DNA of 63,999 bases, the filler included, from an uncultured bacterium (GTDB taxonomy: Bacteria > CAZSTA01): NCBI GenBank assembly GCA_964609495.1. It is 6 parts of 6 records of this genome, joined end to end, with 100 filler letters (N's around TTAATTAATTAA, not from the genome) between each part and the next. Parts side by side here need not be neighbours in the genome. Positions count along the whole stretch, not along the records: positions 1 to 11,640 come from CAZSTA010000111.1; 5 more parts are not named here. The stretch is one strand, 5' to 3'. The stretch's first letter is position 1. Every line of letters starts with the position of its first letter. The position numbers were made by a program, and so were the translations under genes. Shown here one piece after another: positions 2,249-6,227 of this stretch. The notes under the pieces were generated by a model. That model did no database searches, was not told where the DNA came from, and saw nothing but the letters and a program-made list of their open reading frames with translations.

Positions 2249-4462
2249 GTGAGAATCGCCAGAAGGTTGATCTGGGCTGATTGTGTTATATTCTCGTTAT
2301 CGATGCCCATTGCAGTTTATTTCTATATCTTGAATTTCGAACTGACCCCAATTCAGCAGATCTTTGTCATTATCGCCGCGATAATAGGTAGTTTTATCTT
2401 AATAGCCATCGATTATCTCATTAATAGAGCCTTGAGCCTTCGCCCTCAAAGGATACTAGGTGCTTTATCTAGGGGAGAAGAGATAACCTCTGAAGAGAGT
2501 GCGATAGTTCATAGGTTTATCTTAAGCTATCCTCTAATTTTTTCTCTATTCGCTTTTCTCAGAACGGTGACTCTAGGGAATATAATTTATCTTCTGCTCA
2601 AGGTAGTCTTGGATATATCCCTAGAAGATATTGTTCCTGTTGAGGCAGGTTTTTTCATATTCGGAATTATGGTAGCCTTCCTCAACATTGTATTCTACAG
2701 CCTAAGGCTTCAACCTATTGCAGAAACTTTGGCTGGCTATGGGATGAAGTTAATTGGTGGAGAGAAAACACCTCGGTATATAGTCGGTAGTAGGTTTGTA
2801 TTAATATTATTATTCTTAGTATCAATGTTAGTTCCCATCTCTTTAAATGCTATAACTTCCAATTATCATATCGATCGGCTTTTGAGAAATAGACTTATCG
2901 AGAGGGCAGAAATTGCCAGAGAAGTATTAAGTGAGCTCGACGGAAGAGTAGAGATGGGGGAGATGTCTCTTGCTTCCGCTAAGGAGCTAGCCAAGATCAG
3001 ATTGGTCGGCCATTCCAAAGCTGAGGGGAGGGAGGTTTCTCTGGAGAATAGGGTTGGTGATACTGGTTTTTCCTTCATTATTGATATGCAAGGGAAATTG
3101 ATCGCTCATCCTACCAAAGAGGGAGAAATTATCGTGGGGAAACTTCTTCAGGAGATGCCTACTCTTAAGGATAATTGGTTAAAATATATTGATAGGGATA
3201 GAAACCCTCCCCGGAGACGATTGGTTGCTTATCGTTATTATCCCTCCTGGGACTGGATAGTCGCTTATGAAGGAGATATTCAAGAGATGAATGCAGAGAC
3301 ATCGGGCATTAAGCTGTCTTCGCTGCTCATGGTTCTCTTAGGAGTAGGATCGATGTCCGCGATAGCTTATGCCTATGCCTCGATATTATCCTTAAATATG
3401 ATCCGTTTAATTACAGTTGCTCAAAATATCTCGGAAGGAGATCTTAGAGTTGAGATCCCCTTAGCCTCTATGAATCAGAGGGAGATGCTAGTCCTTTATG
3501 AAGCGACGAGTAGGATCAGGGATAGTTTGAGTCGGATAGTCCGTCAGATCAATTCCTCCTCCAGCCAAGTGGCTGATACCGCGGATGAACTGTCGGGTAG
3601 TAGTCAGAAGATATCGGAGGAGGAAGAGGATATATCGGAATCCATCCAGCAGATAGCTTCTGGCGTTAGTCAGCAATTCACTGAGGCCGCAAAGGTGGCT
3701 TCCTTCTCCTCCGAGGTGGTTGAGGCCGCAAATCAAGTTTTGGGGAGCGCCGAGCATTCGGAACGGGTCGCTAATGACATAGCTGAAATTGCCTCTCAGG
3801 GGGAAAGTCTAGCCTCGGAAGCATTGATGCGTATTAATGCGATCTCAACAGCAAGTTCATCTACAGTCGAGGCAGTTGGGGAGTTAGATGAGAGATCGAG
3901 GATGATCGGGAAGATCGTGGAAGCGATATCGAATATCTCTAAACAAACGAATATGCTAGCGCTGAATGCCGCGATCGAGGCAGCTCGAGCAGGGGAAGCT
4001 GGACGGGGCTTCGCGGTTGTCGCTGAAGAGGTGGGAAATCTCTCCAAGCGAACGAGTAAAGCTCTGACTGAGATAAATGACTTGATCGAGGAGATTCAAG
4101 TGGCTATAGCTAGAACTGTAGGTGAGGCGGAAAGAGTTTCAGAGGAGGTCGCAATCAGTCAACAGGTGATCAACGAAGCTAGTAATTCTCTCCAAAATAT
4201 AGCTGAGCAGGTAGAAGGAGCGGTATCTGCTGGACATATCATCTCCACTGCCGCTAAATCTCAACAAGATGATATGGAGCAGTTATCTGCTTCCCTGAAG
4301 TCGATGGCCACATTAGCCGAGGCGAATGCCGCCGAATCTCAGGAAGCTTCAGCCTCCTTAGGGAGACAGACTAGCGCTCTCTTCGAGATGGCTTCCTCCG
4401 CTCAGAAACTCGCTGAGATGGCTGACGAATTGAGGAAGACTATAGAGAAGTTTAAGATTTGA
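2249..4462 (+). CDS. Methyl-accepting chemotaxis protein (multi-TM N-terminus, Cache, HAMP, signalling domain)
   Basis: QTNMLALNAAIEAARAGEAGRGFAVVAEEV hairpin tip; Cache-like FIID..GKLIAHP and WDWIV motifs. Confidence 0.93.
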   Translation: MRIARRLIWADCVIFSLSMPIAVYFYILNFELTPIQQIFVIIAAIIGSFILIAIDYLINRALSLRPQRILGALSRGEEITSEESAIVHRFILSYPLIFSLFAFLRTVTLGNIIYLLLKVVLDISLEDIVPVEAGFFIFGIMVAFLNIVFYSLRLQPIAETLAGYGMKLIGGEKTPRYIVGSRFVLILLFLVSMLVPISLNAITSNYHIDRLLRNRLIERAEIAREVLSELDGRVEMGEMSLASAKELAKIRLVGHSKAEGREVSLENRVGDTGFSFIIDMQGKLIAHPTKEGEIIVGKLLQEMPTLKDNWLKYIDRDRNPPRRRLVAYRYYPSWDWIVAYEGDIQEMNAETSGIKLSSLLMVLLGVGSMSAIAYAYASILSLNMIRLITVAQNISEGDLRVEIPLASMNQREMLVLYEATSRIRDSLSRIVRQINSSSSQVADTADELSGSSQKISEEEEDISESIQQIASGVSQQFTEAAKVASFSSEVVEAANQVLGSAEHSERVANDIAEIASQGESLASEALMRINAISTASSSTVEAVGELDERSRMIGKIVEAISNISKQTNMLALNAAIEAARAGEAGRGFAVVAEEVGNLSKRTSKALTEINDLIEEIQVAIARTVGEAERVSEEVAISQQVINEASNSLQNIAEQVEGAVSAGHIISTAAKSQQDDMEQLSASLKSMATLAEANAAESQEASASLGRQTSALFEMASSAQKLAEMADELRKTIEKFKI

Positions 4463-4601: not shown

Positions 4602-4630
4602 TTGACAACTCGCTATAATTCTGGTAGAAT
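4602..4630 (+). promoter_or_regulatory. Sigma70 promoter of the pur operon
   Basis: TTGACA-17bp-TAGAAT with extended TG. Confidence 0.8.
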
Positions 4631-4648
4631 ATATTCGGAAGATTCGCA

Positions 4649-4695
4649 TTCGTCTCGTATACTCTCATCGCCGAAAGATGTTGATTACGAGCGAA
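4649..4695 (+). ncRNA. Truncated purine-riboswitch-like element overlapping the ykkC aptamer
   Basis: CTCGTATA...CCGAAA...TGATTACGAG resembles P1, J1/2, L3 and J3/1 of purine aptamers; P2 and J2/3 are absent. Confidence 0.45.
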
Positions 4696-4842
4696 AGTGT
4701 GCCTAGGGTTCCGCCTATATTTATAGGGACAGGTCCGAGCGGCATTTGGTTATGAATTATGCTTACCTAAATCAATTTATTATGTGAGCATCGCTATGTA
4801 TTACACCGAAGGGATAAAAGCCCAGGCGGGTAAGTTTCGCTT
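4689..4842 (+). ncRNA. ykkC-family riboswitch, PRPP-sensing subtype (2b)
   Basis: GAAAGTGTGCCTAGGGTTCCG...GGTCCGAGCGGCA...TACACCGAAGGGATAAAAGCCCAGGCGGGTAAGTTTC; P0 pairing GAGCGAAA/TTTCGCTT; directly upstream of de novo purine genes. Confidence 0.88.
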
Positions 4843-4891
4843 ATGAGAAGCTCAACTCTACGCTGACTTACCTCCGAGGCTTTATTTTTTT
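4817..4891 (+). terminator. Riboswitch expression-platform terminator (ON switch)
   Basis: AAAGCCCAGGCGGGTAAGT pairs with ACTTACCTCCGAGGCTTT, followed by a T7 run; the stem uses the aptamer 3' end. Confidence 0.75.
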
Positions 4892-4928
4892 AGATGACTT
4901 TTTTAAGAAAAAGGGGAGAGGAAGATAG

Positions 4929-6227
4929 ATGAAAGTTCTCGTTATCGGTGGAGGAGGAAGAGAACACTGTTTAGTATGGAAAATCGGTCAAAGTTCTCGT
5001 GTCTCCAGCATCTATTGCGCTCCTGGAAATGCAGGCATATCTCAGATAGCTGAGTGCGTGGATATAAGGGCTTCCGATATAGAAGGGATCATCAAATTTG
5101 CAAAAGATAAATCTATCGACCTAACTTTAGTTGGTCCTGAAGTTCCTCTAGTCGAGGGGATAGTAGATCGCTTTCAAGGGGAAGGATTGAGGATCTTCGG
5201 TCCTTCCAAGAGGGCGGCGATGATAGAGGGAAGCAAGGTGTGGGCTAAGGAGCTTATGCGGAAATATGGGATTCCTACCGCTGATTATAGGATATTCTCC
5301 TCTCCCGAGGAAGCGAAGAAATATATTGAAGATAGAGATGATCCAGTAGTAGTGAAGGTTGATGGTTTAGCCGCTGGCAAAGGCGCCATCGTAGCTCACA
5401 ATAAGGATATCGCACTCGAAGCTATAGACCGAATTATGGTGGATAGAGCTTTTGGGAGAGCTGGAGATAGGGTAGTCGTTGAGGAGCTATTAAAGGGAGA
5501 GGAGGCTTCAGTCCTAGCTTTCACCGATGGTTCGAGTATACTCCCGATGATCGCCGCTCAAGATCACAAGCAAGTCTTCGCTGGCGATAGGGGACCTAAT
5601 ACTGGAGGGATGGGAGCTTATGCCCCTGCTCCGCTAGTTACGGAAGAATTGCATTATCAGATAGCTTGTGATATCCTCCTGCCGATCATTAAGGCCTTAG
5701 CTAGCGAAGGAGCGCCGTATAAAGGAGTTCTCTACACAGGCTTGATGATCAAGGATGGCAAAGCTAAAGTTCTGGAGTTCAACGCTCGCTTCGGAGACCC
5801 TGAGACTCAAGTTATCTTGCCGCTTCTGAATAATGATTTGATAGATATTATAGAGGCTATTGAGAAGGAGAGATTGGAGGAGATAAAGCTTGATTGGAAG
5901 GATAAGAAAGCGATCTGCGTAGTGCTAGCTTCAGGAGGATATCCGGGAGACTATGTTAAGGGCAAAGTTATAAATGGATTGGATAGATTCACAGATGAGG
6001 TGTTAATATTCCATGCGGGAACTGCCTTTAAAAATAGAGGAGGAGATTCTTCCCTCAGTAAGGGTGGAGATATAATAACTGCTGGAGGGCGAGTATTAGA
6101 TGTAGTCGCTCTGGGCGATAGTTATCAGAAAGCTATGGAGCGAGTTTATGAGAACGTGGCTAAGATCGACTTTGAGGATGTGTATTACCGCAAGGATATC
6201 GGAGCGAAAGCTCTTAGATATAGATGA
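4929..6227 (+). CDS. purD: Phosphoribosylamine-glycine ligase
   Basis: [23 protein letters not shown] and [10 protein letters not shown] motifs. Confidence 0.97.

Follow-up and report, generated by a model that had tools for sequence, protein, structure and literature searches.

A ligand-free hairpin that may compete with the P0 helix of a PRPP riboswitch upstream of purDECSQL in an uncultured bacterium

Upstream of the purDECSQL operon of an uncultured bacterium (assembly GCA_964609495.1, lineage CAZSTA01), a ykkC-fold aptamer of the phosphoribosyl pyrophosphate (PRPP) type sits directly 3' of a two-stem hairpin with which it shares nucleotides. The DNA analysed, called the window throughout, is the whole stretch of 63,999 nucleotides (nt), filler included, joined from six parts of this genome. 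The 3' strand of the hairpin is at the same time the 5' strand of P0, a helix described as formed by both ends of the aptamer (Knappenberger et al., 2018, PMC6031431; this and the other papers cited are drawn on in excerpt). It appears somewhat probable that the hairpin, itself free of ligand, competes with P0 and would thereby gate a PRPP ON-riboswitch of the operon; PRPP as the ligand, the transcription start and the tuning of the switch are points that we infer.

The elements on which this reading turns are the following (positions are those of the window):

4645-4699 (core 4649-4695), + strand: candidate competitor hairpin, a two-stem fold directly 5' of the aptamer
4649-4652 with 4692-4695 and 4654-4659 with 4686-4691, + strand: basal stem of the hairpin, 10 base pairs (bp), U4653 bulged
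4645-4647 with 4697-4699, + strand: optional extension of the basal stem
4666-4680, + strand: inner stem (4666-4669 with 4677-4680, 4 bp) and loop (4670-4676, 7 nt), alone -3.2 kcal/mol
4689-4696, + strand: P0 5' strand, shared with the hairpin as 3' strand of its basal stem and aligned with the conserved P0 strand of other PRPP-type loci
4835-4842, + strand: P0 3' strand, complement of 4689-4696
4842-4848, + strand: complement (7 nt) of the hairpin 5' strand (4653-4659), just 3' of P0, duplex -7.5 kcal/mol

The hairpin is stable, at -17.6 to -18.2 kcal/mol; for 4645-4700 the value is -18.2 (z -2.83), which 4 of 200 shuffles match. It is present in the minimum free energy structure at all six co-transcriptional lengths sampled. 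Its 3' strand spans all 8 nt of the P0 5' strand and, therefore, the hairpin and P0 exclude each other, as the original prediction, made from the sequence alone, had proposed; nucleotides 4689-4696 are those shared. P0 itself comprises 8 bp, including one G-U, with a duplex energy of -9.9 kcal/mol reckoned from complementarity only. The same prediction had likened the overlap to that of the known tandem guanine-PRPP riboswitches, and the likeness holds: the hairpin strand lies in the register of the 3' strand of the guanine-aptamer P1, and in tandem systems P0 and this P1 are mutually exclusive (Knappenberger et al., 2018, PMC6031431).

The aptamer and the terminator behind it are built as follows; P1, P1a, P1b and P3 are taken from the RF00442 alignment, with their pairs checked:

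4692-4830, + strand: ykkC-fold aptamer core, matched by RF00442 over its full length (1-107), 49.3 bits, E 5e-8
4699-4703 with 4741-4745, + strand: aptamer P1
4706-4707 with 4735-4736, + strand: aptamer P1a
4711-4718 with 4723-4733, + strand: aptamer P1b
4747-4802, + strand: long insertion in P2 that forms an extended hairpin and counts 52 nt in the Rfam alignment
4811-4813 with 4821-4823, plus 4804 with 4825, + strand: aptamer P3
4826-4834, + strand: 3' tail, with a GGG run (4828-4830) that includes the G separating PRPP-type from ppGpp (guanosine tetraphosphate)-type aptamers
4816-4891, + strand: intrinsic terminator, stem 4816-4836 with 4865-4883, U tract 4881-4891, -30.5 kcal/mol

By its sequence the aptamer is PRPP-type (ykkC subtype 2b), an assignment that rests on the S-turn G and tail sequence together with the purine-gene context. 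The G at position 96 of the T. mathranii aptamer, part of the S-turn, is conserved in PRPP aptamers and is not a G in ppGpp aptamers (PMC6031431); this G is present in the leader, within the GGG run, as in the guanine tandems of Halanaerobiales (numbering mapped by our alignment). The 3' tail splits the ykkC loci in two: the leader groups with four Halanaerobiales tandem purD leaders, as against a type that lacks one S-turn G. Through the 3' part of the core and the tail, 28 nt are letter-identical between the leader and Halanaerobiales purD leaders that stand in tandem with full guanine aptamers. Purine-metabolism Pfam families occur in 44 of 50 open reading frames (ORFs) downstream of leaders with this tail type, the 50 being what remains of 56 rows once five Halanaerobiales purD rows and L252 are set aside (L and G numbers are our handles for loci and genomes). 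The score of 49.3 bits lies below the RF00442 gathering score of 63, as do those of 31 of 32 PRPP-type loci scanned (48.9-62.0; L167 reaches 71.7). Thus the downstream element is what it had been taken for, a PRPP-type ykkC aptamer with P0 and the S-turn G ahead of a pur operon. Elsewhere in the same genome, RF00442 has a second, very weak match (18.5 bits, E 0.98; G000:C37:6592-6683, L002).

The 5' arm of the terminator (4816-4836) takes up the 3' strand of P3 together with the tail and reaches the first nucleotides of the P0 3' strand; aptamer and terminator are, therefore, mutually exclusive. A simple terminator scan misses this terminator because its apical region is long.

How would a hairpin without a ligand gate such a switch? 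In the absence of PRPP, the terminator would form; in its presence, the aptamer, including P3, the tail and P0, would be stabilised, the terminator 5' arm held back and transcription left ON. The hairpin would be the first structure made in transcription and would take the entire P0 5' strand; P0, and thus a competent PRPP pocket, could then arise only by displacing the hairpin, in a near-isoenergetic strand exchange paid for by PRPP. Lodged in the slot that the guanine aptamer occupies in tandems, the hairpin would act like a guanine sensor that is permanently part-occupied, with two expected effects: (i) a higher PRPP level would be needed for read-through; and (ii) the OFF state would be tight.

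The folding energies are consistent with such an exchange. About 10-11 kcal/mol are needed to open the basal stem (4649-4695 folds at -14.5, its inner part alone at -3.2), and formation of P0 yields -9.9; when the aptamer core is enforced, the state with P0 has -41.6 and the state that keeps the hairpin -43.0 kcal/mol, a gap of 1.4 that ligand binding could therefore tip. Freeing the P0 strand from the native upstream segment costs 10.5 kcal/mol, as compared with 4.1 +/- 2.6 in dinucleotide shuffles of this segment, of which 5 of 300 reach the observed value. This last figure bears on a distinctly improbable alternative, that the hairpin plays no part in switching and is a neutral remnant, or a stem-loop close to the 5' end that makes the mRNA more stable, with an incidental overlap. 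That it begins 8-12 nt from the predicted start and that no homologous leader turned up in which it is conserved would suit a passive stem-loop; an overlap by accident would hardly be expected to cover 8 of 8 P0 nt or to sequester the strand as strongly as so few shuffles do, and an independent family of leaders, described below, conserves this overlap as well.

Another way of reading the same near-isoenergetic exchange is as a hand-over. The hairpin may be a folding guide or insulator, which would park the purine-rich P0 strand over ~140 nt, avert its mispairing with conserved pyrimidines of the aptamer and release it by strand displacement, so that switching is improved and no threshold is raised. 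With the long P2 insertion in between, the P0 partner strand does emerge only ~140 nt later, and for ppGpp riboswitches, which share the fold, early non-native hairpins involving the conserved 5' purines have been observed or predicted, a guiding role being raised there for the early hairpins of one such riboswitch (PMC10687018). The 4842-4848 complement could capture the hairpin 5' strand freed in the ON state, although chance may also explain it: such a complement is, by eye, not general among the other leaders (the tandem L188 has a similar one of 5 nt). Furthermore, 12 true singlets, whose promoters lie 35-56 nt upstream of the aptamer, work without any such hairpin, and we regard a pure guide as unlikely.

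Is the hairpin what is left of a purine sensor? The original prediction saw in it a truncated purine aptamer, and of this the slot and register of a guanine aptamer stand, while models of purine aptamers see nothing purine-like inside. RF00167 has no match in the leader at E<=10, in contrast to the full-length RF00442 match beside it, and no Rfam family matches the hairpin at that threshold; across the entire genome (completeness 99.45%), RF00167 has no match at E<=1. Two models of our own were more closely fitted: R1 is a covariance model of 26 tandem guanine aptamers, and R2 covers their contiguous 3' half (J2/3-P3-L3-J3/1-P1'). R1 gives the hairpin 8.9 bits (E 3.3; 38 kb, filters off), the level of random matches, and its alignment consists of P1 and the UAUA junction letters, with the 24-nt interior skipped as a local end; R2 does not report the hairpin at E<=10. 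Both recognise L222, a purine-like aptamer with altered junctions (34.2 and 20.6 bits).

The individual purine-like traits fare unevenly. P2 is indeed missing, a single inner stem-loop lying between the P1-like strands with no P2, L2 or three-way junction; the L3-like motif that had been read in the loop (4670-4676) is not significant by R2, and an "adenine-type U" has no meaning where there is no three-way junction. Neither the three-way junction with its L2-L3 contact nor the conserved junction and loop letters that mark a purine aptamer were found. The P1-like letters are the commonest P1 among the 26 aligned tandem guanine aptamers, yet they cannot serve as a purine-aptamer trait or as independent evidence of descent, because the P0 5' strand is conserved across PRPP-type loci, where its partner is a conserved tail, and a hairpin able to sequester this strand has to bring the complement. 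The lesson for annotation is to infer no purine sensor from a purine-like P1 beside a PRPP aptamer.

Descent from a guanine aptamer that lost P2 and most of P3 and kept P1 is nonetheless possible, if the less likely origin; as a claim about origin it is compatible with competition. The slot and register are those of the guanine P1 in genuine tandems, the sole match of R1 in the window falls exactly at 4649-4693, L222 offers an intermediate elsewhere (P1, P2 and P3 kept, junctions altered), and ghost aptamers of glycine riboswitches set a precedent (PMC9481103). A weak hint comes from the aptamer cores most like that of the window: the top 10 comprise five from tandems and five from hairpin or other leaders, with none of the 12 singlets (the best of all, the tandem L188, agrees at 65 of 76). 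Against descent, R1 scores at random level on P1 and UAUA alone, R2 and RF00167 report nothing, the P1 letters are forced, the genome lacks a match to RF00167, and the searches turned up no related leader in which the aptamer is more complete.

The window leader can now be set beside the known systems. The tandem guanine-PRPP riboswitch is an IMPLY gate, with 5-7 nt between its two P1 stems (Sherlock et al., 2018, PMC5912903). It shares with the window (i) a PRPP-type aptamer with P0, a single shared terminator that overlaps P3 and the tail, and purine genes downstream; and (ii) a stem ahead of the aptamer, 6-7 nt from the ykkC P1, that has its 3' strand in common with the 5' side of P0. Unlike in the tandem, the upstream element of the window is a two-stem hairpin of 47-55 nt with no P2, three-way junction or conserved junction letters; the basal stem takes in the whole of P0 and needs no ligand to be stable, and none of RF00167, R1 and R2 sees a guanine aptamer in it. 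Singlet PRPP riboswitches, such as those of Facklamia ignava purC and Heliobacterium modesticaldum purB (PMC5912903), share the aptamer class, the ON logic and the terminator platform. Unlike the 12 true singlets sampled here, which have no upstream hairpin, the window has a strong hairpin that sequesters P0; the published singlets, which number 130 in PMC5912903, may include some of this kind. In glycine singlets, a partner reduced to a stem-loop likewise keeps a structural role beside the working aptamer, but there the ghost supports the aptamer by tertiary contacts (PMC9481103), whereas the window hairpin would compete with it and its descent from an aptamer is only putative.

Related arrangements were sought among ykkC elements gathered from five genomes with named loci and from the phylum of a Peptococcaceae metagenome-assembled genome (151 genomes, 90 with a match). 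Fetched were 80 of the 88 RF00442 hits below the gathering score; the 37 hits at or above it and the 8 weakest below it were left out, and because at least three of the 37 (in G170, G210 and G080) proved PRPP-type, the class counts are those of a sample. A ykkC core was not found by regular expression in 16 of 95 scanned loci, which stand outside the classification. The 50 PRPP-type leaders classed, excluding the window and the Halanaerobiales, divide as follows:

22 of 50: full purine aptamer in tandem, recognised in 18 by a sequence pattern and inspection by eye and in a further 4 by RF00167 (64-85.7 bits)
1 of 50: degenerate purine aptamer (L222)
12 of 50: true singlet, without a hairpin and with the promoter 35-56 nt upstream of the aptamer
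12 of 50: non-purine upstream stem-loop that reaches the P0 strand
3 of 50: class unclear

No other Rfam family was found upstream of PRPP aptamers in the 32 loci scanned at E<=1. The architecture closest to the window is that of L210, and a search starting from it in the G129 order (Bacillota) revealed a family: PRPP leaders occur in 12 of the 14 genomes, one in each, and all 12 have a mini-hairpin at the corresponding register, with no purine aptamer in that place (L255, L259, L262-L264, L266, L269, L270 and L272-L275). These leaders precede purE or purine permease genes and have their own promoter; like the window, they combine a P1-like stem, a 4-bp inner stem and a short loop in the P0 register. 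The P1-like stem (5-6 bp) is nearly invariant and three of the four inner-stem pairs change on both sides, while the loops are free in length and letters; realigned to the family's own model, 89.1% of cells pair in register, vs at most 66.7% when slid. The likeness to the window is one of architecture: sequence homology is not detectable, the internal loops differ and the window basal stem is longer (10 bp). Several G129-order aptamers score above the RF00442 gathering threshold, at which the model, therefore, mixes PRPP-type with guanidine-I aptamers.

Together with the energetics, this conserved analogous family fits the inference, offered in the original prediction, that the element is a ligand-independent competing hairpin. 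That prediction had also entertained a minimal aptamer for a different ligand. In such an aptamer, the internal loop and the 7-nt loop would bind a small molecule, for example a purine base, that stabilises the hairpin against P0, and two-input logic would be kept. In tandem riboswitches the slot does serve as an input port (PMC5912903); yet in the G129 order only the stems are preserved and the loops differ freely in both length and sequence, the hairpins found in the slot are unrelated between lineages, the Rfam search returned no family for the hairpin, and it is already stable without ligand. Since the analogous family keeps stems and not loops, a mini-aptamer of this sort is highly unlikely.

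Across leaders, the cost of freeing the strand plus the energy of P0 comes to +0.1 to +1.9 kcal/mol in the window, L210, L213, L219, L193, L204, L195 and L202, and averages -2.9 (standard deviation 3.1) in 26 apo tandem leaders, a contrast that is descriptive and carries no test because the groups hold related sequences. This caveat is one of several points that weigh against a competing hairpin. The net value is negative in other hairpin-type leaders (L238 -1.2, L194 -2.0, L222 -3.6, L175 -3.1, L181 -4.7), L172 stands at +3.6, and 5 of the 26 tandems also exceed +0.9; nearest-neighbour energies of this kind leave aside tertiary structure, ligand and kinetics. Some G129-order members lie within chance in the strand-sequestration shuffles (L266, 68 of 300; L270, 72 of 300), and covariation in the family is modest (0.247 vs 0.185 +/- 0.031; 21 of 500 shuffles reach it). 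The family model, R3, which gives its 12 members 45.9-57.3 bits, has no match at the window hairpin at E<=10, so the likeness is architectural only: analogous, not detectably homologous. No homologue of the window leader was found and three sequencing runs show no variants; hence the hairpin itself is without covariation support. Finally, the transcription start, placed near 4637, is a prediction only.

In the same shuffles, singlets sit at the mean for P0-strand sequestration, except L220 (8 of 300), in which the promoter scan places a -10 box within the shuffled 48-nt segment, 38 nt upstream of the aptamer. The control is silent on L193, L204, L194 and L238 (cost 0), because 48 nt upstream are too few.

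The searches for the leader itself were guided by DNA and by PurD. The leader DNA finds nothing related in 61 genomes of the same domain, and the phylum is represented in the genome collection by the genome of the window alone. Among the best 80 of 258 genome contigs retrieved with PurD (top identity 58%), a ykkC core precedes purD only in four Halanaerobiales loci, all of them standard guanine-PRPP tandems. Among the best 80 of 279 metagenome contigs, there is one close relative, L085, whose PurD is 94% identical and whose upstream region is unrelated; the homologous purD leaders from which covariation was to be read thus did not turn up. The control region of the pur operon, therefore, differs between close relatives: what precedes purD in the relative (L085:1-459) is an unrelated region that ends in a GC-rich hairpin and holds no riboswitch.

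If the slot 5' of PRPP aptamers can be filled in several ways, what fills it? The fillings observed are the guanine aptamer; a purine-like aptamer with altered junctions (L222); ligand-free hairpins matched in stability to P0, in the window, the G129-order family, L213 and L202; and, in L193/L204 and L195/L202/L238, larger RNAs of conserved structure that belong to no known family. These observations invite a broader and rather doubtful proposal, in which the slot would be a modular input port filled differently by lineage, the hairpin-gated leaders an unrecognised third architecture, and the larger elements, or even the window hairpin, possibly novel sensors. In a narrower form, the count of 12 of 50 sampled leaders with a non-purine upstream structure reaching P0 suggests that the split into singlets and tandems hides a third PRPP class. 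No description of a ligand-free, P0-competing hairpin on a PRPP riboswitch was found in full-text searches on PRPP riboswitches, although subscription papers and supplements may hold one.

Such leaders would be of use beyond their own operons. How the guanine and PRPP aptamers of the natural IMPLY gate interfere was still an open question in 2018, and competition between P0 and P1 was proposed later; plain-hairpin leaders of matched stability would be natural controls for this model, in which competition is separated from ligand binding. If the window hairpin is indeed a competitor, they would also show evolution tuning a PRPP threshold through one helix.

Four cases merit a brief account. In L222 (418-516, + strand; G101:C1), a purine-like three-way junction lies directly 5' of the PRPP aptamer, before purE; it keeps P1, P2, P3 and the L2 and L3 letters, has altered J1/2, J2/3 and J3/1, and scores 28.5 bits with RF00167, below the gathering score of 37. 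By sequence it may be either a decaying guanine sensor or a variant of changed specificity. The related loci L193 and L204 (412-506 in each, + strand) carry, before purE, an element of ~50 nt closed by a 6-bp stem, the 3' strand of which runs into P0 of the PRPP aptamer; no Rfam family matches it at E<=1, and it could be another hairpin gate or a novel aptamer. In a third lineage (L195:387-506 and L202:387-506, + strand; L238:619-738, - strand), a hairpin of ~65 nt has changed in compensating pairs and has kept its apical motif; on its 3' side it continues into P0 of the ykkC aptamer, again before purE, and the tails lack the third S-turn G despite a purine gene context. In two leaders classed as singlets, L200 and L220, ~40-100 nt before the aptamer, a promoter lies within a stretch that has complementary flanks, the 3' strand of which runs into P0; in L200, this stretch has a weak R1 match (8.4 bits, E 4.9). 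The promoter may have been born inside a former upstream element, or the flanks may pair by chance.

Around the leader, the first contig (1-11640, CAZSTA010000111.1) is laid out as follows:

ends at 4462: methyl-accepting chemotaxis gene, 5' of the pur leader
4602-4630, + strand: sigma-70-type promoter, -35 at 4602-4607, TG at 4622-4623, -10 at 4625-4630
4913-4921, + strand: purD ribosome-binding site, a purine-rich run 8 nt ahead of the ATG at 4929
4929-6227, + strand: purD, the first gene of the operon, TIGR00877, 543.6 bits

The promoter is strong, with 11 of 12 hexamer matches, a 17-nt spacer and the TG ahead of the -10, and a leader of ~290 nt separates it from purD. The ORFs after purD match purE, purC, purS, purQ and purL, giving the order purD-purE-purC-purS-purQ-purL. 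The leader is identical, with 0 differences, in contigs from three sequencing runs of three studies; contigs from a fourth run hold only the end of purD and unrelated pieces. No RNA data set is listed among these runs; the lineage occurs in marsh and sediment metagenomes. At the gathering threshold, Rfam finds six tRNAs and nothing else in the entire window: these tRNA genes form a cluster (247-941, - strand) upstream of the chemotaxis receptor gene.

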